Origin: an uncultured archaeon
GTDB taxonomy: Archaea; Iainarchaeota; Iainarchaeia; Iainarchaeales; 1-14-0-10-31-34
Assembly (NCBI GenBank): GCA_964608675.1
Contig: CAZSOZ010000003.1
Coordinates: 10,900-74,899, forward strand
DNA length: 64,000 bases
Direction of reading: 5' to 3'
Positions within the stretch are counted from its first letter, which is position 1. The number at the start of each line of letters is the position of its first letter. The notes below the pieces were generated by a model. The model searched no databases and was not told the DNA's origin. It saw nothing but the letters and a program-made list of their open reading frames with translations. Shown here in pieces: positions 1 to 32,393 of the stretch. The translations under genes and the position numbers were made by a program.

Positions 1-3000
1 TAAAATTTGTTCTTCGCTTCCAATCAACAAATTTGTTTCAGTGAAATCTGAAATTTCTGCGTCAACTAATCCTTTAAAGGAATCAGTTAATTCAACTCCG
101 ATTATTGTTAACGGCATTTCAGTAATGTTTTTCAGAGTAATATCTCTTGTTATTCTTCTTTCAGGTTTTTTTGCATTAAAAGTTTCTTTTATTTCTGTTG
201 GCATAAAAGAAACAATGTTTTCTTTTACTTGAATTATTTTTTCTGTTGGATTGAATCCTGCTTTTTCTGCTGTAATAATTATTTCGGTTCCTGCATTTAA
301 TGGCTCAAAAGAATAAGCATAAATCCCTTTTGAATCTGTTTTTCCGATTGAAATTATTTCGTTGTCTTTTTTTATTTTAACTGTTGCTTCAATTAAATCA
401 TTTTCTTGTTTCTCAGCTAAATGTACTAATAAATTGTTTTGAATAAACGGCAGTAAATTTTTTGGGGAAGTTTCTATTTTCATGTTTTTTGCCATTGCAA
501 CTTCTGCTCTGATTGGATTAAACAATATTTTTTCTTTTCCTAAATTCAGGCTTTCTCCAAACAAACTGAAATCAATTCTGTTTGTTCCCTCGCTTTTTGT
601 TGTAAAATTAATTTTGCCTGAAATTTTTTGTCCTTTGGAAATAGTTCTTGTTGGAATAATTATTTTTCCTTCAGCGTTTTTTTGGATTCCTTCTATTTCA
701 TATGAATTTAATTCCAGTCCTTTTCCTTCTATTGCCAGTTCGCTGTTTGAATAACTTTTTTCGTTTATGCTGATTATATTGAATTCTATTTCATAATTGC
801 TTGAAATTTTTGCCGGAAACGAATCAACAATATTTGTTCTTGTTGCATTTGCTATATCTCTTACTGTAAAGCTTGTGCAAAAGTTTTCTGAACACAAACT
901 TGATGCCCCAATTTTTAATGGTTCATGCCTTGTTTCTGCATACAATGCCTGTTTTGCTGTAGTGCTTTCTGTTTCCTGTAATTCTTCGTCGAAAGGATCT
1001 CTTTGGTAGCCTGAATCAATTACCCATCCTCTGTAAGCTATTTCTAAAGGAGAACCGCTCAATAAATCTTTTACTTGAATTACTGTTTCAATTTCATATA
1101 CTCCTTCTTGAACGTCATTAAAAATCACATTTGTCCATTTAGCGTTTCCTGAAGTTAAATGGCTTGAATCAATTCCATAACCTGTATTGGGATTAAAGGT
1201 TGTTCCTTTAATTATTTTTGCGTTTGCAGCACTAATTTTTTTAATATACAAATCGTCTTTTTCCATTGTATTATTCTGGTTTTTTGTGTCTTCTCCTGTT
1301 CTTATATGAATTCCTGCTTCATTTGAATAAACTCCTTTTGGAATCATTAATTTAAATACTGCTTTGTATGTTTTTCCCTGATTGACTGTTTCGTCTTCCA
1401 GAGTTTCTCCGTTTAATTTTAGTTCCTCTAATTTTACTGCAAAAGAATTAATTGAATCCTCTAATACAATTGTTTTTTCTTCTGTTCCGTCAAACATTTG
1501 AATTGGTGCACTAATGTAATTTGAGTGCCCTGATTCATTCACTTCCAAAAAAACTTTTTTGTCTGCTCTTATATTAAAGCTTTTTTTGCCTTCAGTGTCA
1601 GTGGAATATCTTGCATATTCTTTTCCTGTAAAATAATCAATTACTTTTACTGTTGCTGACTGAATTGCCTGTTTTTCTTTATCCAATATAATTACATCCA
1701 AAGTTCCCTGCCCGATATTCAAAGTAATTGTAATATCCTGAGGTTCTTTTTCTTTTATTGTGATTTTTCGTGAATCTTTTCCTTCAAATCCTCTTTTTTC
1801 TGCACGAATAATGTATTCTCCTTCAGGAACTCTTTCAAACACTGCTTTTCCGTCAAAACCAGTTATTTTTTCTTCTCCAACAATATTCAAAGTTAATGCA
1901 TCTTTTAAGAAAATTTTAGTGTTTTCTACAGGCTGTCCTTTTTCATCCACTACACTTACATTTATTGCTCTTTTATTTGAAGGAGTTGCTTCCTTCAAAA
2001 CAAATTCAAAGTAATCCGCTGAAGGCAAAACATTTTTTGAATCAGAATTCAGATAATCAGGATGAGTGACTGAAGCAGAATAATTAATTTGCTCTGAAAC
2101 CTTAAAAATTGCATTACCGCTTGAATCAGTTCTTTTGTCTCTTAATTCTGCTCCATCTTTAAACAATTTAATTAAAGCATTTTCAATTGGATTTCCTTCA
2201 ATGTTTTTTACTTTAATTTTTATTTCTCCTATTATTCCTTCCTCTAAAACAATTTCAAATTCTTGATTCATGTTGTTTGAATTAATTGTCAAAGTTGTTG
2301 TTTGTTCCCTTGAATCATAATCTTTCCATTTTCCTGTCCAGTCGGTTGTTCTAATATAATAAGTTCCGAATGAAACTTCTGCTGAACACATTCCATTATA
2401 AGTTGAACAAGAATTTTCTTCTATTGTGCTTCCGATTGGAAGAGCCATTGCTTCTATTCCATTCAATAAATTTCCTTGTTTGTCCATTACAGTGAAATCA
2501 ATTATTCCTTTTTCTGTTTCATTTTCTTCCAAATAAATTTTGATTAAAGAAGTGTCTGCAGTAAAATCACAGTCTTCGCAGGTTTTTCCGAATGGTTCAG
2601 CTAAAATTGTTCCGCAGTCTGCAGGAACATCATTTAATTGAGTTGAACCAGTGTTTACGGTTATTGTTTCATTCCATTCGTTGTTCTGGGAACAATTAAA
2701 TCTTACAGTTAATTCTTCTTCAAGGAGTTCGTTTCCTTTTCCTAAAAGCTGGACTTCAATTGGCTGCATTACGCTTGGATTTAATTCAATTGTTCCGCTT
2801 TTTTTTTCTGCATCAAATTTTTTTGTTTCTTTTTTGAATCCTGTTTTTTCTGCGCTGACAGTAAACTCTTTTCCAATAACAACATTTAATTCAGCTTTTC
2901 CGTCTTCATTTGTCTGAACAATTTTTTTTTCTTCATTAACATAATAAGTTATTACTGCGTCTTCAACAGGAACGCTTCCATCATTTACAGTTAATTCAAA

Positions 3001-3216
3001 TGAAGTGGTTGTTTGAAGAATGCCTTCTCCTGACAAAATAAAATAAATTCCGGTTAAAAGTGCAAGCAGTAAAATCAAAAAAACAGGAAAGGAAGGAATG
3101 CTTTTTGATTCAATAAAATCAATGGCTTTATATACAGGAATTCCTGCTTTATCCAAGCCATCCATTAAATCATAATATTTTTCTTCTATTCCGGAATAAA
3201 TCTCTTTTACACCCAT
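1..3216 (-). CDS. Giant surface protein paralog (partial, continues beyond window start). It has an N-terminal cytoplasmic module plus signal-anchor and beta-sandwich repeats.
   Basis: No complete minus-strand ORF is listed for 1-3216 although there is a continuous reading frame. Hand translation from the ATG at 3214-3216 gives MGVKEIYSGIEEKYYDLMDGLDKAGIPVYKAIDFIESKSIPSFP followed by a hydrophobic stretch. This N-terminus is clearly paralogous to that of the 2481-aa ORF (EIY..IE.K.Y..D.LE.KG.PVY..ID.IE.K.IP.FP then a TM segment). Confidence 0.6.
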   Translation of the reverse strand, partial: MGVKEIYSGIEEKYYDLMDGLDKAGIPVYKAIDFIESKSIPSFPVFLILLLALLTGIYFILSGEGILQTTTSFELTVNDGSVPVEDAVITYYVNEEKKIVQTNEDGKAELNVVIGKEFTVSAEKTGFKKETKKFDAEKKSGTIELNPSVMQPIEVQLLGKGNELLEEELTVRFNCSQNNEWNETITVNTGSTQLNDVPADCGTILAEPFGKTCEDCDFTADTSLIKIYLEENETEKGIIDFTVMDKQGNLLNGIEAMALPIGSTIEENSCSTYNGMCSAEVSFGTYYIRTTDWTGKWKDYDSREQTTTLTINSNNMNQEFEIVLEEGIIGEIKIKVKNIEGNPIENALIKLFKDGAELRDKRTDSSGNAIFKVSEQINYSASVTHPDYLNSDSKNVLPSADYFEFVLKEATPSNKRAINVSVVDEKGQPVENTKIFLKDALTLNIVGEEKITGFDGKAVFERVPEGEYIIRAEKRGFEGKDSRKITIKEKEPQDITITLNIGQGTLDVIILDKEKQAIQSATVKVIDYFTGKEYARYSTDTEGKKSFNIRADKKVFLEVNESGHSNYISAPIQMFDGTEEKTIVLEDSINSFAVKLEELKLNGETLEDETVNQGKTYKAVFKLMIPKGVYSNEAGIHIRTGEDTKNQNNTMEKDDLYIKKISAANAKIIKGTTFNPNTGYGIDSSHLTSGNAKWTNVIFNDVQEGVYEIETVIQVKDLLSGSPLEIAYRGWVIDSGYQRDPFDEELQETESTTAKQALYAETRHEPLKIGASSLCSENFCTSFTVRDIANATRTNIVDSFPAKISSNYEIEFNIISINEKSYSNSELAIEGKGLELNSYEIEGIQKNAEGKIIIPTRTISKGQKISGKINFTTKSEGTNRIDFSLFGESLNLGKEKILFNPIRAEVAMAKNMKIETSPKNLLPFIQNNLLVHLAEKQENDLIEATVKIKKDNEIISIGKTDSKGIYAYSFEPLNAGTEIIITAEKAGFNPTEKIIQVKENIVSFMPTEIKETFNAKKPERRITRDITLKNITEMPLTIIGVELTDSFKGLVDAEISDFTETNLLIGSEEQIL

Positions 3217-3322
3217 AAATACCTTTCCCCTTGCAATTATGTTTACGTTGTATAAATAATTACTTTTGTGTATTTAATTCTTTATATAGTTTTGTCTTTT
3301 TTTTATTTTAATTTCGTTTAAT

Positions 3323-5116
3323 TCAGCTTAAAGGTTTGCATCCTCCGGTGCTTTCTCCTATGCCGAAATCAGTTCCTTCGCTGAATTCATATCTTTCACA
3401 AATCCATTCATTTCTGTTGCAGGAATTGTTTGTTTCATTTTGCAGTCCGCAGGTTGTGCTGTTAACAAAAAATTGTTTTGTTTGATGAAATTTTTCTTCA
3501 GTTGAATTTGGAGTAAATTTGTTGTCAACAATTTTAATTACATAAACTGGTTCTTTTGTTTTGTCTATAATATAATTCTTGTTTTTTTCTTTGAATGCAA
3601 TGTTCACTTCAACTTTTGTTACTTCAGTGCAGGTTCCGTAATCTGCACTATAGTTGTCTGAAAAATCAGAAAAGCAAGGGCTGTCTTCTGAAGTCTTCTG
3701 AATTACTTCTCCTTGTTCATTTAATCCTATTCCATATTTTCCCCATGCATTCCCCCATTCCATAGGACAGCTTCCATCAACATTTGCTCCATAAGAATAT
3801 TCTGTTGCATTATCTAATTGAATGCTGTTAATTCCTTTTTGATTTATTTTAACTGAATTTCTTGCCCAGTCTTCTATTTTAATTGAAACAGAACTTTGGT
3901 TTGAAAGCATGCATGAAAAAGCAGAAGAAGAAATATTTTCTGCTTCATCCAAAATGAATTCATCTTTTGTTCCGTTTACTTTTGGGTCAAGATAATTTTC
4001 TGATGAATAATTGTTTCTTATAATTTCGCATAATCTTCTTGCAGTTAATTCCCTTAAAGCCTGCTGTTCGCTTGTTCTGTTTCCCATTAAAAATTCATCT
4101 ATTACAGGAATTTGCTGGTCTGCTTCTTGTTCAGTGCACATTCCTCTTTCTGCCATGCTTGAACTGCAAAAAATTTCTGTTTGTGTTTGATAAGCGTTTC
4201 CTGAAGGGCAGGGAACATCCATGTTTTTTTTTAGCGGAGAAACAAAAGGATTTTTTCTTATATTGCAGTACCCTGGATCACAGAAACCTAATTTCATTTC
4301 TTCTATTTCGTTGTGAATTCTTAAAGAAAACAACCCGTAATTTTCTTTCCATGTGTTTGCTTCTTCTTTTTCAAACTCTAATGCCAGTGCTCTGGATTCA
4401 GCCAAAGCTTTAAACAACCTGATTGGAATATAAATTTTTATGTTTCCTTTTGGAAAAATTGATTCCTGCAAAACCCTGTCAGTTCTTGGATTATAAATTT
4501 TTATTTGTGGAAAAGATTCATAGGTTTCCTCACTTATTTCTTCTATTTTTAAATTCAAATAAAATGTTCCAATACAATTTTTTGGGTTTCCGTTTTCGCA
4601 TTCAACTACTTCAAAAAAATTTCCTGAATCAACGCTTTTTTCAAACATTTTTTGCAGGGATTCAGTTAAAATTCTTCTCTGTTCTTCTGAAGTTTTTCCT
4701 TTATGAACTATTGAAATTTCATAAGGTCCCACAAACCTTTTTTGAGGCCATGATTCAATTAATGCATTGCTGATTTGCTCTGTGAATGCTGTTCCTCCTC
4801 CTGCTCCAAAAAATCTTTCTCCAAAGCGTTCTTTCATTTCATTAAAAGAGTCATCCAAAGGATAAATTGTTATTTCATTTTGTTGTACAAAAAAATATGA
4901 TTCCATTGTTTTTCTTAAAGAATAATTAAATGTCTGCAGTGCTTCTGCCCTGCTTAAGTCTGCCATTGCCTGCATTTCTGCTTGTTCTTCTATATTAGAA
5001 ATTAATTCTGTTCTGTCTCTTTCTGCTTTAATCATTGTCTGAACAATCATTGCAGTCAATAAAATTAATACAAATGAAACCAAAGCAGTAAACAAAGTGA
5101 ATCCTTTTTTATTCAT
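3323..5116 (-). CDS. Large (597 aa) prepilin-like secreted protein with a class-III/type-IV-pilin-like leader
   Basis: The N-terminus MNKKG|FTLFTALVSFVLILLTAMIVQ is a short basic leader, then Gly, then a roughly 20-aa hydrophobic segment, which is the prepilin-peptidase substrate architecture. A large Cys-containing hydrophilic body follows. The gene lies between the two giant paralogs. Confidence 0.6.
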   Translation of the reverse strand: MNKKGFTLFTALVSFVLILLTAMIVQTMIKAERDRTELISNIEEQAEMQAMADLSRAEALQTFNYSLRKTMESYFFVQQNEITIYPLDDSFNEMKERFGERFFGAGGGTAFTEQISNALIESWPQKRFVGPYEISIVHKGKTSEEQRRILTESLQKMFEKSVDSGNFFEVVECENGNPKNCIGTFYLNLKIEEISEETYESFPQIKIYNPRTDRVLQESIFPKGNIKIYIPIRLFKALAESRALALEFEKEEANTWKENYGLFSLRIHNEIEEMKLGFCDPGYCNIRKNPFVSPLKKNMDVPCPSGNAYQTQTEIFCSSSMAERGMCTEQEADQQIPVIDEFLMGNRTSEQQALRELTARRLCEIIRNNYSSENYLDPKVNGTKDEFILDEAENISSSAFSCMLSNQSSVSIKIEDWARNSVKINQKGINSIQLDNATEYSYGANVDGSCPMEWGNAWGKYGIGLNEQGEVIQKTSEDSPCFSDFSDNYSADYGTCTEVTKVEVNIAFKEKNKNYIIDKTKEPVYVIKIVDNKFTPNSTEEKFHQTKQFFVNSTTCGLQNETNNSCNRNEWICERYEFSEGTDFGIGESTGGCKPLS

Positions 5117-5150
5117 TCATATTCCTTTAGTTTTATTGTTTTTTTATTCT

Positions 5151-8100
5151 TTACTCGTTTTTTTCTTTTATTGCTTTTTGGTATATTTCAATTAGTTCCT
5201 GGCTTAACATTTCCGGTTCTGATTCACATGAATCTGAATCAAGTCTTTCTGAATTCTTTATGTTTGCTAAATTTTCGGATGCAACTTCAGAATAAGTGTA
5301 AATTGGTTTTCCTGTATTATATCCTGCTTTTATTTTAACTTTGTATGTTTTTCCTTTTTCAAATTCTATTGCATTTAATTCTGCTTCAGGTTCATTGATT
5401 TTGTCATAGTCGCCCATTAATGCATTTGCAAGCATCCATCCTGCTATTCCTCCAGCCATTGTTCCTCCGCTTCTCAAAAGCCCTTTGGCAAGCCTTGACC
5501 ATTTCGGATTTTTTGCTGAAAATGCTTCCAGTTTTGTTTGTTTGGAAACTGCTTGTTCTTGTCCTAATTGTTTTGTTATTGCTTTTTGTGATGCTCCTGA
5601 AGGGGCTTTTATTGTTTTTTTTGCTTGACTGATGTCATCAACTGTTTTATCTACAAACTTGTTTTTCATTTCTAAAAGTTTTTTTCCTTCAGGGGTTGCA
5701 GGATTTGCTTTTGCATCAACTTTTGCTCCCCAGTCTTCAATTCTTTTTATTAATCCTGTTTCAGCGTCTCCTGCGATTCCGTCAATTATAAAAGAAGGAT
5801 TTCTTCCGCTTCCAAGCCCTCCGACAGTATTTCTAAATGTTTCATCTACAAACATTTGAGCATTAATTCCTCTTCCCTGAACTCTTGTTTTTCCTATAGC
5901 TTTAATTAATTCATCATAAGCTGAATCAAATCCAGTATAATTAGGATCGGTTATTCCTTCTATTAAAATTCTTTTAGATCCTGTTATAGGCACTTTTATT
6001 TCAATAAATCTTTTTCCGGCAACATCAATTGTTTTTCTGAATCCAGGCACTTTAATTGGCTTTGCTGTGTCTGCATAAGTTCCTATTTTTGTTATTTCTG
6101 TTTTTGTTAAAGTTTTTTTGGCGCCATTGTATCCTGAAATATCTTTTTTTATTAATGAAAATTCGTCAATTAATTCTTTGTCTCCGATTGAAGCTAAAGC
6201 GTCTGCGGTTTCTTTTGCTTTTTTTGCTTCCTCGCTTAAAGGAAGAACATTTTTTATAGTTTCTTTTGCGCCTTGATTGATTGCATGAAGTTTAACGGTT
6301 TCCCTGAAAAACTCGTCGTTGCTTAATCCTGTTCCTTTTTGGACTTCTTCTAGTTCGCCTGCATCAATTCCTATTGATTTTAATCCTGTTTTAAATGAAT
6401 TTTCAGTTATTTCTTTTACTTCTTTTCCTGAAGAAAAAGCAGCAATTCCTATTGCAGGAGCTGTTCCAAAAAGCATTTCTTTTGCAATCATTCCTGCTCC
6501 AAGGGTTCCGCCTGTTGCTGCAGCAGTAATTGCAAACCCTGCAATAGAACCTATTCCGTATCCAACCAAACCCCATGCTTTTCTTTCATTTATCTGGCTT
6601 TGCCTTTGAGCTGAAGGGCTTTCTTTTGGATGCTTTAAATAATATGCATTCATTAAAACTTCAAACGGAATTTTGTTTGGTTCTCCCTTCCAGTCAATTG
6701 TTGCATAATAGTTTCCGGGCTTGCTTATTTCTTTGCTTCTTTCAATGAATTCAATTGGGCTGATTGAACATACTCCAAACTGCAGGGTTTTTTCTTTTAA
6801 TCCTGTGACATTTAATTTTAATTTAGAGTTTTTTGCCAGCCTTGGGTTTTCTGAGCCAGTAAAACAAAGCTTGAATTCAAATTCATAGTTTGTGCCTGCT
6901 TCCTTCCATTCCACGTTGTTTAAATTAAATTCTGTTTCTCCTTTGTTGGTTATTTCTCTTCCGTCAGAATACTTAAAGACGGTTTCATTTTTTTGTATTC
7001 CCTGCAGGTTTTCATTAACAAAATCAAGAGAAAGTTCTGCTTCAGGAGCATTTAATTTGCTTGACATTTTTAAGTCAACACAGTTTTCTGCATTAGGATA
7101 AAGATTAACAAAGTTTTCTGTTTCTATCCACTTCAAGTTTGCTATTTCAGAAATATTTTTAACTGAACCTAAAATCAAATAATCCATTTCACTTGAAATG
7201 CATCCTTGTTCTATTTTTCCGTTTTTCAGGTTTGAAATAATTAAGCCTGCTTCTCCTGCAATATCGTTTTGTATTTCTTCGCTTGAATTAAAATACTTAT
7301 CAGTTATGTATACGTCTATTTGTTTTGGTGTATTGCTTGCTCCGCTTCTTTCTATTTCTATTTTTACTATTCCTTTTGTTTGATCAAAGCTTCCTTTGCT
7401 TACTCTTATTAAATTATTTTCCTGATTTTGTGTTACTCTTGCTCCTTGATTGTCTTTGAATAAGGTTTTTGAAAAACTTTTTTGGAGTTCTTCTATTTCA
7501 GGATTTCTTATTATTAATCCAAGCCAGCTTCCGTTTCTTCTGCTTGGACTGTAGTCTTCGTTTACCGGCAGAAAGTTCATGAAATTTTGTATTCTGTTAT
7601 AGCATTCTGGTGTTTCTTCTCTGCTTCCTTCAATTTTTAACAGCAGGCTGACTGAATCTTTTCTTATTTCGTTTCCGTTTACTGCTACTGCTCCAATAAA
7701 TTTTGCCTGATATCTTCCGCATCCTCTTATTGACGGCAGTAACAGCAAATGTTCTCCGAATGATTTTCCTGCTGTTGAATACAATTCTTGTTCTGTTTCA
7801 CCGTGCCTTATATACAGGCTTTGTATTTCTTTTGCTCCTAATTTTTTTATTTCGCTTTCAAGCATGCTTGTTGTTAAATTATCGTTTTTGAAATAAAATT
7901 CAAATGATTCTGTTGTTATTCCCATTGCTCCGAATGAACAATAATCTTCAATTAAATTGCATTTTGCTCCTAAATTTTCAACGCTTTTTACATCTGATAT
8001 TCTTAACTGCGCTTTTCTTAATTCTTCTTCTATTTTTTCTGCTAAAAATCTTCCTAATTGTTGTGCATCACAGTAGCCTTGTCCGCAGTTTTCTGACTGC

Positions 8101-11100
8101 TTTGGAAAATAAACTGCTGTTGTTTCTGGTTTATCGCAGTAATCTAATGTTGTTTCGTTTTCCCATTTGCAGGGCTCGTTTTCGTTTCCGCATTCCCCTG
8201 AACCTTTTCCTATTGCTATTTCTATTTCAAAAGGCATTGAATGAATTGTTTTTGCAGGCATTGATTTTTCTCCTATTCCTATTACTTTTATTTTTATTTT
8301 TTGGTTTGCTTCTGATTCTTTTGTCAGCCTTAAAATGAATTCATCTTTTGTTCCTGGAGGCAGAGTGTATCCTGAATCAATTAAAGTTATGTTATTTCCT
8401 CCGATTTTTTCCGGTTCAATTCCTATTATTCTTACTGGTTCAACGCAGTTGTTTACAATATTTAAACTTTTGTCTATTGAACCAAATTCTGCGTTCGGAG
8501 AATTGAACAGCATGTCGTCTGACCATGCTTCCAAGCAACTCCAGCCTGCGCTTACATTTACAAATACATTTATTTCTCTTAACGCATATTGTCTTCCGTT
8601 GATTGTTCCTGACACAATTATTTTTCCTGTTATTCTTTGGTTTTCTGATGTATTGGTTTCTGCTTGAATTACTGCAGGCGGAATTAATGCCATTCCTCTT
8701 CTTAATTCTGGAACATTTCTTCCTTCACTGTATCCATAACTTACTGTTATTTTTGTGTTTGCAGGTTTATTGAATTCTGTTGCAAAAGTTAAATTTGTAA
8801 TGTCTGCTAAACCTGTATTTCTTATATACAGCGGATGAACTGCTGTTGCTTTTTCTTTTTGTTTGCTTTGAGTCAGCCATAATACAACTGAAGGACTTGC
8901 TTCTAATGCAAACATTTCATGCCATAAAATTATTCTTGCAGGAATGCTTTTGGTTAACTGCCTTGACGCCAAAAACAAATCGTAATCTAATTCATTTTGT
9001 CTTGCATAATTTCTTTGTATTTTGTTTATTACTCCTATTTTGATTGTTTTTACTTCGTCTTTTGCTATTTTTATTGTTCCTGAACTGAATTCTATTTCTT
9101 TGTCTGAATGGTTTTTTGGATGAACTTCTAATTCAAACTGCAGTGCCTGATTGCAGTTGTTTTTTAATCCTAATTCAAGTTCTTTTGAATTGCCTCCTGC
9201 TCCAATCAAGTATTCTTTTAATTCTGTTTTATCAAATTCAAGGCAGTCTTCTTTGAGTTTCTGGTTGTAGTTTGCTTTAATTTTTGTTTTTGTTTTTATT
9301 GGAATTCCTTCAATGAATCCTGTAATTATTATTTCTGCTTCTCCGTGGAATACTGCTGTATTTGTTCCTGAATACTCTAATATTATTTCTGTCTGGTTTT
9401 CTTCTTTTGCTGAAAGAACTGCAGGAGGATTAACGCTTAACTTAAATTGTTTTGGGAAATTTCCTGAAGGAATTATTTCTGCAGTAATTCCTTCAATTGT
9501 TTTTTCAGTTAAATTTTTTATTTGAATTCTTTTTGATGTAAACAAGTCTCCTGAAGGAATATTTATTTCTGCTTCTGATTCTATTTCAAGTCCTTCTCCA
9601 AATTCAATCTGGAGTTCTTTTTCTTTTGTTTTAAATTTGTCTGCTTTTATTTTAATTAAATAATTTCCTGCTTCAAGATTGTTTTCTATTCTGTATTTTC
9701 CGTTTCTTCCGTTTAATTCGTTTCCTGTAATTGTTTTTTCAAGCCTTCCTTTAATATTATAAAATTCTATTTCCGCGTTTTCTATTCCTTTTCCCTGATT
9801 GTCTTTTACGTTTATTTCAAAATCCTGTCCTTTTCTTGCTGTTTCTGGAGCTTGTATTTCCATTTTCTGTTCTTCAAATACTTTAAAATAAAAGTTTTCT
9901 GTCATTGAATCTTTTGGAGTCAATGCAATTGATTTAATTGAACTTTCCCCTGTTTTTTTTGCTTTAAAGTATACTCTTATTTTTGTTCCTTCTCTTGAAA
10001 TAATTTCCTTGAATTCAATTGAAGTATCGCTTTTATTGTTGTCTATAAACTGGCTGAATGAATTAACTTCTTTTCCTGTAAAACCTATTTTTGGGTTTTC
10101 TTTTGAAGTAGTAATCCTGAAAGTTGTTTCAACTGAAAGTCTTGCTTCTGCATTCATTTCCAGTGCATAAACTTTTCCTTTTACTGCAAAAAAATCTTTT
10201 TTGTCATATACTCTTTCGTCTTCGTCTTTCAAAACATATTCAATGCATGCTTCTTCCATGCATTCAGGTTCTGAATCATAGACTTTTATTTCTATTTCTT
10301 TTGTGTCTGCATATAATGCTTGTTTTTCTTCTGTGGTTTTTTCTTTTTCAAGAACTTCATCAAAGGGATTCCTGTAATAGTATCCGTCTGCATAACTCCA
10401 TGCCCTGAACTGCATTCTTATTGTTTGATGTGAAATTAATTCTCTTGCTTTAATTCTTACTTTAATTATTTTTGTTCCTTCTGGTTCATTGAAATATAAT
10501 TCAATAAACTTGTTTAGTTTTCCTCCTTGTCCTGAATTAGAGTAATCTATTTCCTGGTAGCCCGGGGAAGGATTTGGAGTAAAGCTTCTTCCATAAAAAT
10601 ACTTGTTTGTTGGTGCATCAAATCCTGTTATTCCTATGTCTTCAGAGTCAGCGTATTTAATTGAATCAATTCCTGTTCTGAAATGAATTCCTCCTGATTC
10701 AAGGCCTTTGCTCCATTCAGTTTTAAATTTTAAAATGTAATCTTTTCCTTTGGTTATTCCTTCAACTTCGTTTCCTGCAATATCATATGCTCCTAAAAAT
10801 TCAATGTTTGGAGTTTTTTCTGTGTATTTTCTTGCATCTAAATCAACTTCAATCTCTGTTTTGCCTTCTAAGTTTATTTCTTCTGAGTATTTTGTTCCAT
10901 CTTCTTTTGTTAATTCAAATTCAACAAAATTGCTTTCTCCTGCTTCAAATAAAATTTCTTCTTCTATTTCTCCGTCAAATAATATTTCTCCTGCCTGATT
11001 TTTAATTATCAGTGTTCCTTTTGTTATTTTTCCTTGTGCATCAAAAAATTTAATGCTTTTAACTGAATCCTTTTTTTCCAGTTTTATTATCATGTTGTTA

Positions 11101-12596
11101 TTGTTTTGTGATTTTATTTCAAGGGATTGTGTTCCCTGAAGCAAATCTTTTACTGCTTTAACTGTTATTTCTGCATCTCTAGGTACAGTTAAAGTGAATT
11201 TTCCGTTTTCGTTTGTTTTTTTTGCTTCGATTCCAAGAGGAACAAAAAATGCTTCATTTGAATCTCTTTTAGTAAAATAAAGTGTTGCGTTTGCAACAGG
11301 TTTTTCATTAAAGTCAACTACTATTATTGCTAATTCTCCTGAATTTTTTGCTGTTGCTTTAGTTAATTGAATTATTTCTGTTTCTTTTTCTATTTTTTTT
11401 GTTTCCGGAAGATATCCTTCTTTTTCTGCTCCTAAATAATATTCTTCTTCTTTTTCAAGTCCTTTGAATTCAGTTAACCCTTCATACAAAGTCGTGCTGG
11501 AATTAATTATTTTTTTTTCTGAATCAAACAAAGTTATTTTTGCACCAACTGCAGGATTTTGTGTTTCAGCATAAACTGCTTTTATTTTGATTTCTTTTCC
11601 GCCTTTTTCTAATTCTACTGCGCCTAAATTTTCTTCTTCGCTTCTTAAAGTAAATTCATTTGATTCAAATAATTTGTAGCCTTCTTTTTCTGCCGTAAAT
11701 CTTACTGCAATTCCTTTCGGAAAATTTTCAGAATAAACTCCTTCTGAAATAATTTTTTCGTCTATTAAGTCATTGCTTTCTGCGTCATAAACTTTTATTT
11801 TTGCGTTTTCAATTAATTCTCCTGTTTCTTTGTCAAACAAAGTTATAATCAGATTGCTTTCTCCTTCAAATGCCAGTTCTTTTGGGTTAAGGTAAATTGA
11901 TTTTGTTTCTTCTGATTCAAATGAAATTACTCCTGTGTGTTCATAATACGAGTCTGCTTCTGCTGTAATATATATGTCTTCTTCTAATGGCACATCCAAA
12001 AATTCAATTAATCCTTCTGAATTTGATACTGCGTCTTTTATTATTCCTTTCCATTCAATTGATGCTCTTACATTTGAAACAGGGGTTTCTGTTTCATAAT
12101 CATAAAATTTTATTTTTGCTTTAATTGTATTAATTATTTTTTTTAAATTTAATTCTGCTGTTTCTTTTTTGTTGATTACTTTTATTTTTGTTTCATCTGA
12201 TTCAAATCCCTGTTTTTGTGCAGTTATTGTGAGTTCTGCTCCTCCTTCTACCTTTACTTCAATCAGGTCTCCATTGTTTTTTATTCCTTTAAATATTTCT
12301 TTTTCTGTTGAATCAACTATTTTTATATTCACCTGGCTTAATCCTTTTCCGTATGAATCCACTAAATTTAATTCAATTTGCGCATCAAAGTTTGCTCCAA
12401 TTACTCCAAAGCCGAACACAACAAACAATAAAACTGCAATTAATGCAATGCTTAAAGGAAAAAAGGGAATTCCTTTTTCTTCTATTGGATCGATTAATGT
12501 ATAAACAGGAAGCCCTTTTTCTTCAAGAAAATCAAAGACTGAATAAAACTTGTCTTCTATTTCTGTGTATATTTTTCCTAATGTTTCTGAAATCAC
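5151..12596 (-). CDS. Giant (2481 aa) membrane-anchored surface protein with tandem beta-sandwich (Big/CarboxypepD_reg-like) repeats, a Cys-rich module and C-terminal Gly-zipper hydrophobic segments
   Basis: Single uninterrupted ORF. The N-terminus is a roughly 45-aa hydrophilic module followed by a TM segment (FFPLSIALIAVLLFVVFGFGVIGA). Many repeats follow, of roughly 80-100 aa each with alternating hydrophobic/polar beta-strand patterns. Late in the protein there are Gly-rich hydrophobic stretches (GYGIGSIAGFAITAAATGGTLGAGMIA and GGTMAGGIAGWMLANALMG). Confidence 0.8.
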   Translation of the reverse strand: MISETLGKIYTEIEDKFYSVFDFLEEKGLPVYTLIDPIEEKGIPFFPLSIALIAVLLFVVFGFGVIGANFDAQIELNLVDSYGKGLSQVNIKIVDSTEKEIFKGIKNNGDLIEVKVEGGAELTITAQKQGFESDETKIKVINKKETAELNLKKIINTIKAKIKFYDYETETPVSNVRASIEWKGIIKDAVSNSEGLIEFLDVPLEEDIYITAEADSYYEHTGVISFESEETKSIYLNPKELAFEGESNLIITLFDKETGELIENAKIKVYDAESNDLIDEKIISEGVYSENFPKGIAVRFTAEKEGYKLFESNEFTLRSEEENLGAVELEKGGKEIKIKAVYAETQNPAVGAKITLFDSEKKIINSSTTLYEGLTEFKGLEKEEEYYLGAEKEGYLPETKKIEKETEIIQLTKATAKNSGELAIIVVDFNEKPVANATLYFTKRDSNEAFFVPLGIEAKKTNENGKFTLTVPRDAEITVKAVKDLLQGTQSLEIKSQNNNNMIIKLEKKDSVKSIKFFDAQGKITKGTLIIKNQAGEILFDGEIEEEILFEAGESNFVEFELTKEDGTKYSEEINLEGKTEIEVDLDARKYTEKTPNIEFLGAYDIAGNEVEGITKGKDYILKFKTEWSKGLESGGIHFRTGIDSIKYADSEDIGITGFDAPTNKYFYGRSFTPNPSPGYQEIDYSNSGQGGKLNKFIELYFNEPEGTKIIKVRIKARELISHQTIRMQFRAWSYADGYYYRNPFDEVLEKEKTTEEKQALYADTKEIEIKVYDSEPECMEEACIEYVLKDEDERVYDKKDFFAVKGKVYALEMNAEARLSVETTFRITTSKENPKIGFTGKEVNSFSQFIDNNKSDTSIEFKEIISREGTKIRVYFKAKKTGESSIKSIALTPKDSMTENFYFKVFEEQKMEIQAPETARKGQDFEINVKDNQGKGIENAEIEFYNIKGRLEKTITGNELNGRNGKYRIENNLEAGNYLIKIKADKFKTKEKELQIEFGEGLEIESEAEINIPSGDLFTSKRIQIKNLTEKTIEGITAEIIPSGNFPKQFKLSVNPPAVLSAKEENQTEIILEYSGTNTAVFHGEAEIIITGFIEGIPIKTKTKIKANYNQKLKEDCLEFDKTELKEYLIGAGGNSKELELGLKNNCNQALQFELEVHPKNHSDKEIEFSSGTIKIAKDEVKTIKIGVINKIQRNYARQNELDYDLFLASRQLTKSIPARIILWHEMFALEASPSVVLWLTQSKQKEKATAVHPLYIRNTGLADITNLTFATEFNKPANTKITVSYGYSEGRNVPELRRGMALIPPAVIQAETNTSENQRITGKIIVSGTINGRQYALREINVFVNVSAGWSCLEAWSDDMLFNSPNAEFGSIDKSLNIVNNCVEPVRIIGIEPEKIGGNNITLIDSGYTLPPGTKDEFILRLTKESEANQKIKIKVIGIGEKSMPAKTIHSMPFEIEIAIGKGSGECGNENEPCKWENETTLDYCDKPETTAVYFPKQSENCGQGYCDAQQLGRFLAEKIEEELRKAQLRISDVKSVENLGAKCNLIEDYCSFGAMGITTESFEFYFKNDNLTTSMLESEIKKLGAKEIQSLYIRHGETEQELYSTAGKSFGEHLLLLPSIRGCGRYQAKFIGAVAVNGNEIRKDSVSLLLKIEGSREETPECYNRIQNFMNFLPVNEDYSPSRRNGSWLGLIIRNPEIEELQKSFSKTLFKDNQGARVTQNQENNLIRVSKGSFDQTKGIVKIEIERSGASNTPKQIDVYITDKYFNSSEEIQNDIAGEAGLIISNLKNGKIEQGCISSEMDYLILGSVKNISEIANLKWIETENFVNLYPNAENCVDLKMSSKLNAPEAELSLDFVNENLQGIQKNETVFKYSDGREITNKGETEFNLNNVEWKEAGTNYEFEFKLCFTGSENPRLAKNSKLKLNVTGLKEKTLQFGVCSISPIEFIERSKEISKPGNYYATIDWKGEPNKIPFEVLMNAYYLKHPKESPSAQRQSQINERKAWGLVGYGIGSIAGFAITAAATGGTLGAGMIAKEMLFGTAPAIGIAAFSSGKEVKEITENSFKTGLKSIGIDAGELEEVQKGTGLSNDEFFRETVKLHAINQGAKETIKNVLPLSEEAKKAKETADALASIGDKELIDEFSLIKKDISGYNGAKKTLTKTEITKIGTYADTAKPIKVPGFRKTIDVAGKRFIEIKVPITGSKRILIEGITDPNYTGFDSAYDELIKAIGKTRVQGRGINAQMFVDETFRNTVGGLGSGRNPSFIIDGIAGDAETGLIKRIEDWGAKVDAKANPATPEGKKLLEMKNKFVDKTVDDISQAKKTIKAPSGASQKAITKQLGQEQAVSKQTKLEAFSAKNPKWSRLAKGLLRSGGTMAGGIAGWMLANALMGDYDKINEPEAELNAIEFEKGKTYKVKIKAGYNTGKPIYTYSEVASENLANIKNSERLDSDSCESEPEMLSQELIEIYQKAIKEKNE

Positions 12597-12688
12597 GTTC
12601 TGCCTCTAAAAACCTTTAATAGTTATGAATAATTAGTTTTTAATAGTATTTAAATCTAGCGCGGTTCTTTAATAAAAACCAAAAAAAC

Positions 12689-13282
12689 TTATATTTTGTT
12701 TTTAATGCTTTCAGGAATTCCTTTGACTGACAAATAATACCATGCAAAATAGTATCCTGCAATCAACACAAACAATGAAATCCTGAACAATAAATCGTGT
12801 GCTAATTCAATTGTCTGCAAATCTGTTTTTTTAATCAAAAAAACAGTAATAATTATTCTTGCAGTATTAAACAAAAAGGTTGTAATGCCTGCTCCGATTA
12901 CCCCGATTGCTTTTTTTTCTTTTGTTATTTCTCCTGTTGCAATTACTGCTGAAGCCAGCACAATGAATTCCATTAATCCAGTGCATAAATAACTAATTTG
13001 AATTGAATAATTTTCAAACAAAATTAAAACAGGTTCCTGAAAAACAATTTTTCCTCCGGTAAAAACTGCAACTGCTTTTGCAGTAATTAATTCAATCCAT
13101 TCCAAAGGAATAAATGAAATCAAAAAAGAAAGAAAAACATAAAAGAAAACCAGAATTAAAACAAACTTTCCTACCTGAACTATTTTTTTGTCCATTAAAT
13201 TTAATTTAATCAGCAAAGTATTAAATATTCTTTTTTTTATAATTTTTTGCATGGCTGGAGTAATTGATTCATTTGCATTCAT
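12689..13282 (-). CDS. Putative exosortase/archaeosortase-family polytopic membrane protein (short form)
   Basis: 197 aa with multiple TM segments. It has a Cys inside a TM-flanked motif (ISYLCTGLMEF) and a downstream FNTARIIITVFL (Asn..Arg) motif. These resemble the conserved Cys/Arg/Asn core of the exosortase/archaeosortase family. This is a motif-level resemblance only. The true start may be an internal Met, because the ORF as listed overlaps the divergent gene by about 95 bp. Confidence 0.45.
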   Translation of the reverse strand: MNANESITPAMQKIIKKRIFNTLLIKLNLMDKKIVQVGKFVLILVFFYVFLSFLISFIPLEWIELITAKAVAVFTGGKIVFQEPVLILFENYSIQISYLCTGLMEFIVLASAVIATGEITKEKKAIGVIGAGITTFLFNTARIIITVFLIKKTDLQTIELAHDLLFRISLFVLIAGYYFAWYYLSVKGIPESIKNKI

Positions 13283-14246
13283 TCTAAAAAAAAGCTTTGA
13301 CTTAAAGTTATGGCTTTATTTTCTGCTTATTTTAATTATTGCAGTTGTTTCTTTTGGAATACTCTTTTTTGTTTTTCTTTTTATTGGATTTCTTTTATTT
13401 TTAATTCTGCAGTTTTCGCTTGCAGGATTTTTGTTTTATTTTATTTTTTTTATTTTGTTTTTGGTTTCAATGTTTGCTTTGGGTTCAGCGGTAAATGGAG
13501 TTTTATTGAATTTTGCAAGAGATTACATTCATTCAGGCAAAATCGATTTAGGGCTGGCTTTCAATAAAACTAAACCAAGAATTTTCACTGCAGTTAAAGT
13601 TGAGGTAATTGTCGGAATTTTCTTTTTTGCAGTTTTTTTATTATTTTTTCTTCCGTTTATTTTTTCTTTAATTGAATTAATTAATACTGCTTCTCTTAGA
13701 TTTCTGATTGCGCCTAATTCATCTCAAATGCTTTCCCTGTTTTTTTCTGTTTTAGGTTCTCTTTTGCTGGGTTTTCTTTTGTATGGAATTTTCAGCATTA
13801 TTGTTGCTCCGTTCAGCATTCTTTACAGGCAGATTCCTTTTTTTGAATCCCTTTCAGCGGTTGATTCAATTAAAAGAGCAGTTTTTCTTGCAAGAAAAAA
13901 TTATTTTTCTAATTTAGGTTTTGCGGTTCTGGCTTTCATTATTACAGGTGTTTTTACTTTTGTTTACATGATTTTTTCTTTTGTTTTAGCTTTAACTAAT
14001 GCAAGTCAGATTATATTTCTGATAATACTTGCAATTTTTTTAAGAATAATTTTAGAGTTTGCTTTTGTTTTGTGGACTACGGTTTTTAATTATCTGGTTT
14101 ATGTTAAAGTTTATGAATTCAATTCAACTGAACAAAAATTTTTTCAGCCGAAAACTTTTCTAAAAACAAAACCTAAAACAAAATCAAAATCATTAAAGCC
14201 AAAGCCTTCAACAAAAACCAGAGTCAAGCCCGGCACAAAAAAATAA
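13188..14246 (+). CDS. Polytopic membrane protein with a Lys/Pro-rich C-terminal tail, function unknown
   Basis: 352-aa ORF with about 8 hydrophobic segments and a tail KTKPKTKSKSLKPKPSTKTRVKPGTKK. It is the first gene of the plus-strand pilus operon. The start is uncertain (Met22 at 13251 is possible). Confidence 0.5.
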   Translation: MSIKFNLISKVLNILFFIIFCMAGVIDSFAFILKKSFDLKLWLYFLLILIIAVVSFGILFFVFLFIGFLLFLILQFSLAGFLFYFIFFILFLVSMFALGSAVNGVLLNFARDYIHSGKIDLGLAFNKTKPRIFTAVKVEVIVGIFFFAVFLLFFLPFIFSLIELINTASLRFLIAPNSSQMLSLFFSVLGSLLLGFLLYGIFSIIVAPFSILYRQIPFFESLSAVDSIKRAVFLARKNYFSNLGFAVLAFIITGVFTFVYMIFSFVLALTNASQIIFLIILAIFLRIILEFAFVLWTTVFNYLVYVKVYEFNSTEQKFFQPKTFLKTKPKTKSKSLKPKPSTKTRVKPGTKK

Positions 14247-14305: not shown

Positions 14306-16585
14306 ATGAAGATTGGAAACTTTGAAGTAGGAGATTATGCTGTTAAGGAATCAGGCGGAAAACGTCATTTAATTTTTGACTGCAGAAACTGCGTTTATTC
14401 TTCTTCTTTGACTGATGATAAAGCATGCCGTTATCATGTTATTTCTATTTTATCTCAGATTGAAGCAGACTTAATTGTTTTGGCTGAAGTTTATGAAAGA
14501 GTTTATAACCAGCATCAAACTAAATTGCTTAAAGAGATTGCAGAACTTATCCCGCGATTTGAATTAGAAAACTTGTGGGGTGTTGAAAATTTAGGTGAAT
14601 CCGGAACCGAATGCGAAAAATTGTTTGGATTAAGGCATGATCTTTTAGTAAAAATTTCGCATGACTTAATTGCATTTGATCCAATACTTTCTTACATTAC
14701 TTTGCTTTCCGAAATACAAAAAGAAAAACAAAAAATGAAAAACGAGAATTATGCTTCCTGTTCCAAACCATTCATTCAAACTTTATTGTATTTAAAACAG
14801 GAATTCGAAAAAACTGAATTGATTTCAAAAGCAAAACAAATTATTGCAAAATTAGAGGAAATGCCTGACACAAAACAATTATATTACTCTTTTTTTGAAG
14901 CTCAAGTCAAGCCTTCTTTTATTGGTTCAAGATTAATGTTTGAAAAAGCAGAAACACTTGAATTATTGGATGAATATTCTGTTAAAAAATCCAACGTGCA
15001 AATTTTTAAGCATCCGAACAAAGTTGAAAAACTTTATTTTTTGAATCCGCCTGAATATACTTTGCCTCCGGAAAAATATTTTGTGTTAAGCAAAACAAAA
15101 GAAATTGTTGCCACTTATCAGCCCGGCAAAACTTCTTTGTCAACTATTGCCAAAAGCAGAAAATATTTTGAAAGAGTTTATGAATCAACTATTTTTGATA
15201 TTGCAAAACAAAACAATATTTCTTTGTCTAAAGAAGAAGTAAAAGAATTAAGTGAAATTGTTGCAAGATATACTGTTGGTTACGGAATCCTTGAAATTTT
15301 GTTGAGCGACAGAAATCTTACAGATATTTATTTGGATTCTCCGATAGGACAAAAACCTTTGTATGTTGTTCACTCTGAATACGGCCAATGCCAAACCAAC
15401 ATTTTGTATACAGAAGATGAAGCTGAATCAATGGTTTCAAAATTAAGGGCTATGTCAGGCAGACCGTTTGATGAAGCGCATCCTGTTTTGGATTACGATT
15501 TGCAGGAACTGGAAACAAGAACTGCTGTAATTGGAAAACCTTTGGCTCCTGATGGAATTGCTTTTGCTTTTCGTTTGCATAAAATGACCCCATGGACTCT
15601 TCCTCAGTTTATTGACAAAAAATTTATTTCTCCTTTGGGAGCAGGCCTTTTGTCTTTTTTTATTGACACTCAGTCAACTATGCTTGTAACTGGTTCTCGT
15701 GGTTCTGGAAAAACTTCTTTGCTTGGAGCATTAATTCTTGAAATTTTGCAGAATGCAAGAATTATTGTTCAGGAAGACACTTTGGAAATTCCTGTTTCTT
15801 ACATGAAGGAAATAGGCTTTAATATTCAGAGAATGAAAACAAGGGCTCCAATTGGTACAGCTAAAAGCGAAACAGAAGTTTCTCCTGAAGATGCTTTAAG
15901 AACTGCGTTAAGGCTTGGTGATTCTGCTTTGGTTTTAGGTGAAGTTCGTTCAACTGAAGCAAGAGTTTTGTATGAAGCAATGCGTGTTGGTGCAGCAGGA
16001 AACATTGTTTTGGGAACAATTCATGGTGATTCAGCTTACAGTGTATGGGACAGAGTTGTAAATGACTTGAATGTTCCAAGCACTTCTTTTAAGGCAACTG
16101 ATATAGTTGTTGTTGCCCGTCCAATTCGTTTTGGGGGCTCTCTGGAAAGGCAGAGAAGAGTAGTTCAATTAACTGAAATAAAAAAGGAATGGATTGAAGA
16201 CCCTTTGCATGAAGGAGGCCTGCTTGATTTAATGCTTTTTGATGCATCAAAAAACAAGCTTGAATTACAGGAAGACAATTTAAAGGAATCAACTTTGTTT
16301 GATAGAATCCATAAAACTTATGGTTTGAGTATGACTGAAATGTGGGATTCAATTAAAATGAATTCAAATTCCAAGGCTTTTATGGTTGAATTAAAAAACA
16401 AACTGGGTTTCCCTGAATTGCTTGAAGCAGAAAACACTGTTCCTGCAGTCAACAAATTAATGTTAATGAAACAAAACCAGCTTGAAGAAAACGGTTCAGT
16501 TGACTTTGAAGAAGTTTTAGGCAAATGGAAATTCTGGTATAAAAATGATTTCGTTAAAAGACTGCATTCAAGAAGGAAAAAATAA
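14306..16585 (+). CDS. FlaI/GspE/VirB11-family secretion ATPase (type IV filament assembly ATPase) with a roughly 350-aa N-terminal extension
   Basis: Walker A is LVTGSRGSGKTSLLGALI, the Asp box/Walker B is IIVQED and GEVRSTEA matches the GEIRG-like motif. The N-terminal extension carries a Cys cluster, CRNCVYSS..DKACRYH. An ATG start follows an AGG Shine-Dalgarno. Confidence 0.85.
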   Translation: MKIGNFEVGDYAVKESGGKRHLIFDCRNCVYSSSLTDDKACRYHVISILSQIEADLIVLAEVYERVYNQHQTKLLKEIAELIPRFELENLWGVENLGESGTECEKLFGLRHDLLVKISHDLIAFDPILSYITLLSEIQKEKQKMKNENYASCSKPFIQTLLYLKQEFEKTELISKAKQIIAKLEEMPDTKQLYYSFFEAQVKPSFIGSRLMFEKAETLELLDEYSVKKSNVQIFKHPNKVEKLYFLNPPEYTLPPEKYFVLSKTKEIVATYQPGKTSLSTIAKSRKYFERVYESTIFDIAKQNNISLSKEEVKELSEIVARYTVGYGILEILLSDRNLTDIYLDSPIGQKPLYVVHSEYGQCQTNILYTEDEAESMVSKLRAMSGRPFDEAHPVLDYDLQELETRTAVIGKPLAPDGIAFAFRLHKMTPWTLPQFIDKKFISPLGAGLLSFFIDTQSTMLVTGSRGSGKTSLLGALILEILQNARIIVQEDTLEIPVSYMKEIGFNIQRMKTRAPIGTAKSETEVSPEDALRTALRLGDSALVLGEVRSTEARVLYEAMRVGAAGNIVLGTIHGDSAYSVWDRVVNDLNVPSTSFKATDIVVVARPIRFGGSLERQRRVVQLTEIKKEWIEDPLHEGGLLDLMLFDASKNKLELQEDNLKESTLFDRIHKTYGLSMTEMWDSIKMNSNSKAFMVELKNKLGFPELLEAENTVPAVNKLMLMKQNQLEENGSVDFEEVLGKWKFWYKNDFVKRLHSRRKK

Positions 16586-19500: not shown

Positions 19501-19559
19501 TTTCTTAAAACTAAAGCTTTAAATATTTCTTTGGTTTTCTTTTTAGTGGTGATGTTTTT

Positions 19560-20099: not shown

Positions 20100-20204
20100 A
20101 TTTTTAAGAAAAGTTTTAGCAAAATGTACAGCGTAAAAAACCGTACTCTCAAACTTATTTTTTTTTAATTAACTTTAAATACCAGTTTAGCCTTATTTTT
20201 TGTT

Positions 20205-20354
20205 ATGGAATTATTAAAGGAAAATAAAGCGCAAAGCGAATGGAATTCTGTTTACATGCTGATAGTTTTGATTATTGCTGTACTGTTGTTGATTACTGTT
20301 ATTAAGCCGATGTTTGAAAAAAGCCAGCAGATAAACAAGCCGATAGGAGGCTGA
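20205..20354 (+). CDS. Small (49 aa) single-TM ORF inside the pilin operon
   Basis: Hand-found ORF below the 60-aa track cutoff: MELLKENKAQSEWNSVYMLIVLIIAVLLLITVIKPMFEKSQQINKPIGG, ending in TGA. Its end overlaps the AGGAGG Shine-Dalgarno of the next pilin gene. Confidence 0.25.
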   Translation: MELLKENKAQSEWNSVYMLIVLIIAVLLLITVIKPMFEKSQQINKPIGG

Positions 20355-20358
20355 TTTT

Positions 20359-20907: not shown

Positions 20908-20917
20908 GGTAATTTGA

Positions 20918-31382: not shown

Positions 31383-31392
31383 ATTCATTCAA

Positions 31393-32388: not shown

Positions 32389-32393
32389 TTTTT

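Follow-up and report, generated by a model that had tools for sequence, protein, structure and literature searches.

The closest described system to the one reported here is the clade-1 archaeal type IV pilus (T4P) locus, which encodes the Epd pili found in Methanococci, Methanobacteria and Thermococci and that has large predicted adhesins associated with it (PMC4858521). Clade-1 loci include an ATPase, a TadC/FlaJ-like platform protein and at least five minor pilins with G/Q class-III signals (a slash marks the predicted cleavage position), and alongside these further membrane proteins, a protein resembling S-layer proteins, and large proteins (PMC4858521). The same kinds of genes were found in a stretch of 64,000 nucleotides from an uncultured archaeon of the Iainarchaeales (assembly GCA_964608675.1, contig CAZSOZ010000003.1, positions 10,900 to 74,899 of the forward strand), hereafter the window. 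The region represents one arm of a cell-surface supercluster conserved in DPANN archaea, in which giant surface proteins, a pilin-like gene, an exosortase-family gene and a T4P-like operon form a unit, as a first-pass annotation of the window had suggested; this unit is conserved across distant lineages. Attachment organelles and nanotubes of DPANN archaea have been seen by cryo-electron tomography (cryo-ET; PMC11329633). For the attachment of these archaea to their hosts and the exchange of material between them, the cluster offers a candidate cell-contact apparatus.

The minus strand of the window encodes giant A (2481 aa, GTG start, 5151–12596), the large pilin-like protein p597 (597 aa, 3323–5116) and the N-terminal 1072 aa of giant B (1–3216). 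The latter runs past window position 1 and is complete, with 2501 aa, on a public contig of the same DNA (L002:19381-26886; L and P numbers denote loci and proteins of the comparison), where a third giant (C, 2194 aa) follows directly after it. Upstream of giant A on the same strand is art197, a small exosortase/archaeosortase-family protein (197 aa, 12689–13282). The open reading frames (ORFs) and strands of these four genes were as the first-pass annotation had given them. The intergenic gaps from art197 through giant A and p597 to giant B are 92, 34 and 106 nt. The shared strand and the gaps of 34–106 nt bear out only in part that the genes had been called co-operonic: the first gap (12597–12688) includes a T-run just past the art197 stop codon and then, about 60 nt upstream of the GTG of giant A, a TTTAAATA box, and giant A may have a promoter of its own. 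GAGG is present 8 nt upstream of the same GTG.

The search for giant-side loci with the consensus peptide of the N-terminal module described below gave 10 genomes. The gene order giant A, p597-like gene, giant B and giant C (and D) was present in L001/L003, L004, L005, L014, L015 and L018/L019, and in L006 and L007 a p597-like gene was followed by giant B. An exosortase-family gene beside giant A, with divergent orthologues of the ATPase (~760 aa) and the platform protein (~780–850 aa), was found in the window, L003, L014 and L015. By its coordinates, also the L004/L017 contig has the same arrangement of the exosortase-like gene and the divergent ATPase and platform genes, and most loci so arranged include a gene similar to p352, with which the divergent operon begins. 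Seen from the side of the giants, the exosortase-like gene adjoins giant A in five of the six lineages. When metagenome contigs were scanned with the N-terminal 300 residues of the ATPase, the exosortase-like gene was divergently adjacent to the ATPase in 11 of the 12 loci with informative upstream sequence, and giant A came next in all eight loci with enough sequence past the exosortase-like gene. Because the two views agree, with L028 and the loci of the AR10 type excepted, the unit is real and widespread, though not obligatory. The suggested linkage of the giants to pilus genes is frequent, with the same exceptions.

The protein p597, which had been described as prepilin-like and as encoded on the strand of the giants, has the N-terminus MNKKG/FTLFTALV. 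This follows the class III layout MNKKG/FTLFTALVSFVLILL, with a short basic leader, G or A at position −1 and a hydrophobic stretch. Among 31 homologues residue −1 is G or A, and F6, L8, F9, T10, A11 and L12 are invariant, which bears out the description. The protein has many conserved cysteines. It did not match any curated pilin family above the cut-off (the best being ComGF with 19.2 bits against 80) nor any Pfam family, and no prepilin peptidase is encoded within the 64-kb window. In every locus examined, a p597-like gene (390–627 aa) separated giant A from giant B, and because of this constant position the operon of the giants is tied to a pilus-assembly pathway even where no pilus operon is adjacent.

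Giants A and B are paralogous, with ~790 residues aligning at 26% identity (E = 9e-34), and both begin with the same module, MGVKEIYSGIEEKYYDLMDGLDKAGIPVYKAIDFIESKSIPSFP in giant B (aa 1–44, 3085–3216) and VISETLGKIYTEIEDKFYSVFDFLEEKGLPVYTLIDPIEEKGIPFFP in giant A (aa 1–47, 12456–12596). The first ~45 residues are about 52% identical, roughly twice the similarity of the remainder. The first-pass annotation had recognized this relationship between two giants; the array consists of three or four in a row, all of them with the module. The start codons of the giants agree with the N-termini of their homologues (MISETLG... in giant A orthologues, and MGLKEIY...). Local alignment of the two N-termini gave a score of 113 against 22.8 ± 4.8 for shuffled sequences (z = 18.6), and as none of 20,000 shuffles reached 113, the similarity is above chance.

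A word-seeded homologue search with the 73-aa N-terminus produced no matches, but an exhaustive search succeeded, in which a profile built from the two sequences was compared with 1.84 billion cluster representatives. At E ≤ 1e-3 the profile matched 830 protein clusters, of which 250 reached E ≤ 1e-10. Each of the 150 best matches begins no further in than residue 35 of its protein, and 69 of them are on proteins of at least 2000 aa; the carriers are mostly proteins of 2000–3000 aa. The named sources are all DPANN: Diapherotrites/Iainarchaeum, Micrarchaeota, the complete genome GW2011_AR10, and entries labelled plainly as 'archaeon'. The module has the consensus h-Y-x-x-[LI]-E-[DE]-K-[YFW]-[YF]-x-h-[LM]-D-x-L-[DE]-x-K-G-[ILV]-P-V-Y-x-h-[VI]-D-x-h-E-x-[KR]-[GN]-I-P-[SAT]-F-P, which is followed by a transmembrane (TM) helix. 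Of the 150 sequences, 135–150 keep the residue at any one of its positions Y, E, D, G, P, Y, D, E and P, and together with the clusters matched and the alignment score these positions define a discrete and strongly conserved element. The C- and D-type giants were found through adjacency, not with the profile, and carry a shorter variant of the module (...LEEKWYNFLDKINEKIPVYRLVDKIDKVIPSF + TM). Read directly, the module resembles two tandem units of a helix followed by K-G-I-P-aromatic.

The module is the most conserved part of the giants. In 47 full-length giants the mean pairwise column identity was 0.48 in the first 40 residues and 0.10–0.29 in the other 40-residue blocks, the N-terminal peak being inflated since these sequences were chosen via the module profile. 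That the common N-terminus reflects nothing but a recent tandem duplication of one gene would fit the paralogy of the giants over hundreds of residues. The module is, however, ~45–50% identical across DPANN lineages of phylum level and in all paralogue types, against column identities of 10–29% elsewhere in the proteins. These conservation data, with the module kept while the rest of the giants drifted, refute the duplication reading and leave it a negligible probability. The module was found also on two shorter ORFs, one of 525 aa in Micrarchaeota UBA95 (L012:10004-11581), 5.6 kb downstream of a T2SSE ATPase, and one of 134 aa in Iainarchaeum (L013:9983-10387), after a giant of >3257 aa. Because of these, either the module family is not restricted to giants or the short ORFs are decayed copies.

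An AlphaFold2 (AF2) model of the giant A module based on 30 homologues was confident (predicted local distance difference test score, pLDDT, 94; predicted template modelling score, pTM, 0.70), with helices at residues 2–26 and 31–40 and a TM helix at 45–67. The layout is thus an acidic helix-loop-helix, an I-P-x-F-P hinge and one TM helix. The n-region is 41–47 aa long and has a net charge of about −3 (mean −3.3; range −3 to −6). In each giant one strong hydrophobic helix of ~21–25 residues lies directly behind the module; the signal-anchor helices are at about aa 45–63 of giant B (3028–3084; Kyte-Doolittle value 2.66) and about aa 48–68 of giant A (12393–12455; from hydrophobicity and the AF2 model), so the hydrophobicity scan bore out the single TM helix expected in both. 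As to its orientation, lysine plus arginine counts averaged 1.26 in the 15 residues ahead of the TM core and 0.56 behind it (136 homologues), and therefore weakly favour an N-in topology. No known signal or domain class was recognized in the module, with no Pfam or NCBIfam match at E ≤ 10, none in a profile search of PDB and none by Foldseek. Sec/Tat signal peptide, ESPR, YSIRK and class III signal were each considered and rejected, as neither a curated match nor the defining layout was found.

In the reading tentatively preferred here, to which we give somewhat less than an even chance, the module would stay in the cytoplasm (N-in) and serve as a handle by which the giants are docked or assembled. 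It would keep them attached to a partner in the cytoplasm or the membrane. This partner would most probably be the ATPase/platform complex of the co-inherited pilus, in a docking logic that by analogy would resemble that of the N-terminal peptide of bacterial PilN on PilM. One envelope-anchored attachment structure would be built from the giants, the pilin-like subunit and the pilus together, and host contact would be a plausible role for the cluster. Several points weigh against the docking reading. The positive-inside rule supports the N-in orientation weakly because the module itself is net acidic, and the conservation peak is inflated by the selection mentioned above. L028 has a pilus operon without adjacent giants, and loci of the AR10 type have a full giant array without adjacent pilus or exosortase genes, with a pterin dehydratase gene and small ORFs upstream of the array. 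L007, L009 and L010 show no pilus genes in the sequence covered. Paralogues could also retain a common N-terminus for export alone.

This last point leads to a second, rather unlikely reading, according to which module and TM helix form a specialized export or insertion signal for very long proteins, the pilus genes being neighbours by function only. Such an extended signal-anchor could slow, target or chaperone Sec/SRP/YidC-dependent insertion, in a role analogous to that of ESPR in giant autotransporters and YSIRK in surface proteins of Gram-positive bacteria. The position of the module at the extreme N-terminus directly ahead of the sole hydrophobic helix, its occurrence mostly on proteins of 2000–3000 aa and the non-universal linkage to pilus genes all agree with this. 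The curated signal classes, however, show no similarity to the module, its folded acidic n-region of 45 residues is unlike those of known Sec signals, the hydrophobic stretch of ~21–25 residues is anchor-like, and the four acidic and three aromatic near-invariant positions suggest a surface for a specific partner. Moreover, two exported proteins of 1490 and 1047 aa encoded in the window use ordinary signal peptides, so the module is not the general export signal of this organism. The latter is a surface protein (39541–42684, minus strand) with fn3/Big domains and a TM segment at aa ~954–994, and lacks the module.

The module might also join giants A–D to each other at the inner membrane face through its amphipathic first helix (hydrophobic residues spaced 3–4 apart), independently of the pilus, which we consider doubtful. 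All three or four co-encoded paralogues do carry the module, direct reading of the sequence shows a continuous hydrophobic stripe along helix 2–26, and the AR10-type genomes retain the giants in an array that has no pilus genes next to it. The AF2 monomer is nevertheless already compact and confident, its helix not pointing to a need for a partner, and oligomerization would leave unexplained why the pilin-like gene is constantly embedded in the array.

The divergent operon on the plus strand consists of genes for a multi-TM protein, an ATPase of the T2SSE type and a platform protein similar to T2SSF, and further of those for six small class-III-like proteins, a 178-aa protein and the secreted protein p1490, in agreement with the type-IV-filament operon expected there from the first annotation. 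It is opened by p352 (331 aa, 13251–14246), a multi-TM membrane protein with no family match. The next gene encodes a specialized assembly ATPase of the T4P/archaellum type (759 aa, 14306–16585), whose T2SSE domain scored 61.9 bits (cut-off 24.9). It was rejected as archaellum FlaI proper, since the FlaI model gave 131.8 bits against a cut-off of 550 and the cluster has no archaellum accessory genes. In its N-terminal extension of 290 aa (14306–15205) C26, C29, C41 and H44 are invariant and look like a zinc-binding site. The N-terminal 300 residues are 62–90% identical among five lineages, and the N-domain still 62–65% identical between lineages whose A-type giants share about 25–33%. Some ATPase orthologues are 1259–1278 aa long (L015:3764-7582, L020:10001-13780, L022:9148-12966, L023:10001-13822, L025:9992-13828), and in L015 the extra length is an intein with Intein_splicing, Hint and LAGLIDADG matches. 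The FlaJ/TadC-like platform protein (777 aa, 16585–18918) had a borderline T2SSF score (23.8 bits against 25.2) and was assigned by orthology, its orthologues being flagged as T2SSF.

The six small proteins (18994–22757) have class-III-like N-termini (QKG/QSFE, QKG/QEFS, CRG/QEE and others) and are read as pilins or minor pilins; their gene order is kept in L016, L017, L022, L023, L028 and L029. On the opposite strand inside the operon there is a gene for a Lys/Glu-rich protein of 266 aa with a C-terminal double CxxC zinc-ribbon (22758–23558, minus strand), which is kept within the cluster in L016, L017, L028 and L029. This very basic protein is a conceivable partner of the acidic module. A multi-TM protein of 178 aa (23613–24149) is always encoded directly upstream of p1490 (24154–28626), a protein of 1490 aa with an ordinary N-terminal signal peptide that closes the operon. 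Homologues of p1490 close the same operon in L017, which is from a close relative, and in L016, which is from a Diapherotrites genome. The window has also a second, smaller T4P-like system (29886–34597, minus strand) with a 471-aa T2SSE ATPase and two TadC-like proteins beside a PAC2-family gene, and this synteny is kept in the distant genomes L016 and L017.

The sortase-like enzyme announced by the first-pass annotation scored 32.9 bits with TIGR04178, the exosortase/archaeosortase signature (cut-off 23), and 27.4 bits with the Pfam model PF09721 Exosortase_EpsH (cut-off 25.7), and so passed both. The real start of art197 is probably M30 at 13195, which would give a protein of 168 aa. It has 5–6 hydrophobic segments, and Cys100 (LCTG), Asn139/Arg142 (FNxxRI) and His162 are invariant in four orthologues of 36–70% identity. 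It did not fit any of the named subfamilies compared (ArtA–E, XrtG, XrtK and others), with XrtG giving 25.8 bits against 102.75 and ArtD 17 against 125. The enzyme had been listed together with the giants, and the gene is indeed present beside them; the likelier target is p1490. The C-terminus of p1490 (...NLPSLPE-SLLGLSLFFVSLIACMFLIQFS-VKKKK; signal of LPSLPE, TM and KKKK at 28525–28623) is the only tripartite signal in the window, and N-[LI]-P-S-[LIM]-P-E, a TM helix and a basic tail are retained in homologues (P0199-P0206) with as little as 32% overall identity. The signal was kept in eight of the ten homologues, the remaining two being partial or without the C-terminus. It did not match any NCBIfam or curated sorting domain. 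No C-terminal TM-plus-basic sorting signal was found in the giants, and they were therefore judged unlikely as substrates. Because the sole tripartite signal is that of p1490 and is conserved, the exosortase-family enzyme would probably process this LPSLPE-CTERM protein rather than the giants. It is speculation that p1490 is an S-layer-type envelope protein.

In all window ORFs the pattern [ILV]P[SAT][FLM]P occurs twice, at the giant B junction (3085–3099) and in the p1490 signal (28525–28539), both times directly preceding a TM helix; the pattern was picked post hoc. It could be a shared recognition element or a mere hinge. Together with the exosortase-like gene being the immediate upstream neighbour of giant A and the junction often having [KR]-G ahead of the hydrophobic helix, it brings up a quite improbable reading in which the module is a processed leader or sorting signal, cut at K/R-G/I-P-S-F-P by a prepilin-type peptidase or by the adjacent exosortase-family enzyme. 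Prepilin-type cutting would make the giants huge pilus-borne subunits, and the exosortase could read hydrophobic-P-S-hydrophobic-P plus TM, as in p1490. The residue before I-P is, however, G in 106, N in 42 and another in 2 of the 150 sequences, and V/I in the C/D type. This misfits the specificity of prepilin peptidase, and class-III cleavage of the giants was judged unlikely from these statistics. If the giants are N-in, the two sites of the pattern lie on opposite membrane faces, that of the giants being cytoplasmic and thus opposite to the cutting side of exosortases. Nor would a discarded leader be expected to be the best-conserved and well-folded part of the protein, and the pattern match itself was found after the fact.

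The giants are 2,200–2,800 aa long, each with one N-terminal signal-anchor helix and a cysteine-rich ectodomain opening with beta-sandwich domains. The first annotation had described a repeat-rich exodomain, which was not supported: neither tandem repeats at the DNA level nor internal repeats by BLASTP were found in giants A or B, and all that Pfam recognized were a few divergent beta-sandwich domains (CarboxypepD_reg, Big_1 and macroglobulin-like), scattered over the first ~1000 residues. The CarboxypepD_reg match of giant B reached 93 bits. Repeat-built adhesins of the SiiE/Bap/LapA kind were rejected as a model, as the giants are without long arrays of recognizable tandem repeat domains. 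No sequence relative of giant A was found in PDB, and giant B has a single TM helix and no C-terminal anchor. Database records name the giants either 'hypothetical' or 'carboxypeptidase regulatory-like domain-containing' and nothing more. Outside the module their cysteine-rich sequence with beta-sandwich domains is typical of extracellular proteins.

A-type giants share about 90 invariant positions across roughly 2000 residues, many of them cysteines. They have a glycine-rich hydrophobic segment near residue 2000 (aa ~2009–2060 of giant A, 6417–6572, minus strand), and the C/D-type giants have one at a different position; this segment is possibly a membrane-inserting hairpin. In A-type giants the Gly/Cys-rich hydrophobic hairpin is ~400 aa ahead of a variable C-terminus (aa 2061–2107 in P0019), and P0019 carries an SLT lytic-transglycosylase domain at aa 2551–2601 (45.6 bits). 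The C-terminal region could form a membrane-inserting or effector-bearing tip. The SLT domain was rejected as the core activity of giant A, being missing from that of the window and found in one of the 17 A-type giants scanned. Proteins called 'large lytic murein transglycosylase', with lengths of up to about 3,000 aa, have been reported from DPANN archaea (Woese-/Pacearchaeota; PMC8204110, PMC9723730). As P0019 carries the SLT domain, some A-type giants probably belong to this set, which would probably correspond to the SLT-bearing subset of giant A. The reported proteins (fam00969) have SLT/GH23, unlike giant A of the window and the other A-type giants without SLT. A term search of PMC8204110 and PMC9723730 found no mention of pilus linkage, a multi-giant array, the N-terminal module or a pilin-like partner. 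In the B-type protein P0100, the C-terminus has a motif that resembles CAP/SCP as judged by eye.

Two further observations concern the surroundings of the giants. In two distant lineages (L003:7800-8446, L014:8705-9856) an inserted MNT (NTP_transf_2)/HEPN gene pair separates the exosortase-like gene from giant A; a conserved MNT-HEPN family has been listed as DPANN-specific (Makarova et al. 2019). A nucleotide-sugar/glycan biosynthesis cluster at 47531–63224 of the window, with genes for the rhamnose pathway, UDP-glucose dehydrogenase, a GT4 glycosyltransferase, a flippase-type Polysacc_synt protein and methyltransferases, fits a cell-surface island.

The earlier suggestion that the apparatus was undescribed held, as neither the module nor the multi-giant operon with its pilin-like member was found described in the open-access literature, and the same was true of the zinc-finger ATPase and of the LPSLPE signal. 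The secretion complex predicted by Makarova in 2015 (arCOG01314/02884) and the VARTIG module of Thermococcales were compared and found unrelated to the cluster. With three or four giants and a dedicated pilus machine, the cluster takes about 30 kb of roughly 1-Mb genomes, and it is kept across genomes labelled as Diapherotrites, Micrarchaeota and 'archaeon'. The module profile is a sequence handle with which the system can be located in any DPANN genome, and LPSLPE-CTERM is a candidate new sorting signal with a probable enzyme. There is a modest chance that the cluster is a DPANN host-contact organelle. A bolder version, which we regard as unlikely, would have the four giants, p597 and the zinc-finger ATPase/platform forming a single, hitherto unrecognized envelope-spanning organelle, perhaps the host-contact structures and nanotubes seen by cryo-ET. 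The module would then be a new class of cytoplasmic docking signal coupling giants to a type-IV-filament motor, and the exosortase-family enzyme would read hydrophobic-P-S-hydrophobic-P plus TM on both p1490 and the giants. These are concrete interaction hypotheses, open to structure prediction, proteomics and tomography.

The proposed docking has its nearest counterpart in bacterial T4P, where the N-terminal peptide of PilN docks onto PilM, and in GspL–GspE of the type II secretion system. Like the giants, PilN has a short conserved cytoplasmic N-terminus, a single TM helix and an extracytoplasmic domain, and its N-terminus couples the envelope part to the filament machine. There is no relation in sequence or fold, the module being a folded helix-loop-helix of 45 residues and the ectodomains being about 2,400 aa, and the window cluster does not encode a PilM-like protein. 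The ESPR of autotransporters and TpsA proteins and YSIRK-G/S are N-terminal extensions belonging to Sec signal peptides that are cleavable and have basic n-regions. They resemble the module as conserved N-terminal extensions preferring very large surface proteins, whereas the module is acidic, folded and 45 residues long, is followed by an anchor-length helix and matches no Pfam family. Archaeosortase and exosortase systems reportedly act on C-terminal tripartite signals, as in the pairs PGF-CTERM/ArtA and PEP-CTERM/EpsH (Haft et al. 2012). The family signature and the Cys, Arg and His residues of art197 and the motif, TM helix and basic tail of p1490 conform to these systems. Unlike ArtA, art197 is much smaller and in no named subfamily, LPSLPE matches no curated sorting domain, and the giants beside art197 lack a C-terminal sorting signal, unlike in the known pairs. 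Compared with the clade-1 T4P loci, in which the large proteins have DUF2341 and are interpreted as tip adhesins similar to PilY (PMC4858521), the giants of the window are without DUF2341, are 2,200–2,800 aa long and stand three or four in a row. They are anchored by a signal-anchor behind a conserved N-terminal domain that is presumably cytoplasmic, the ATPase has an N-domain of 290 aa with a putative zinc finger, and the unit includes an exosortase-family gene.

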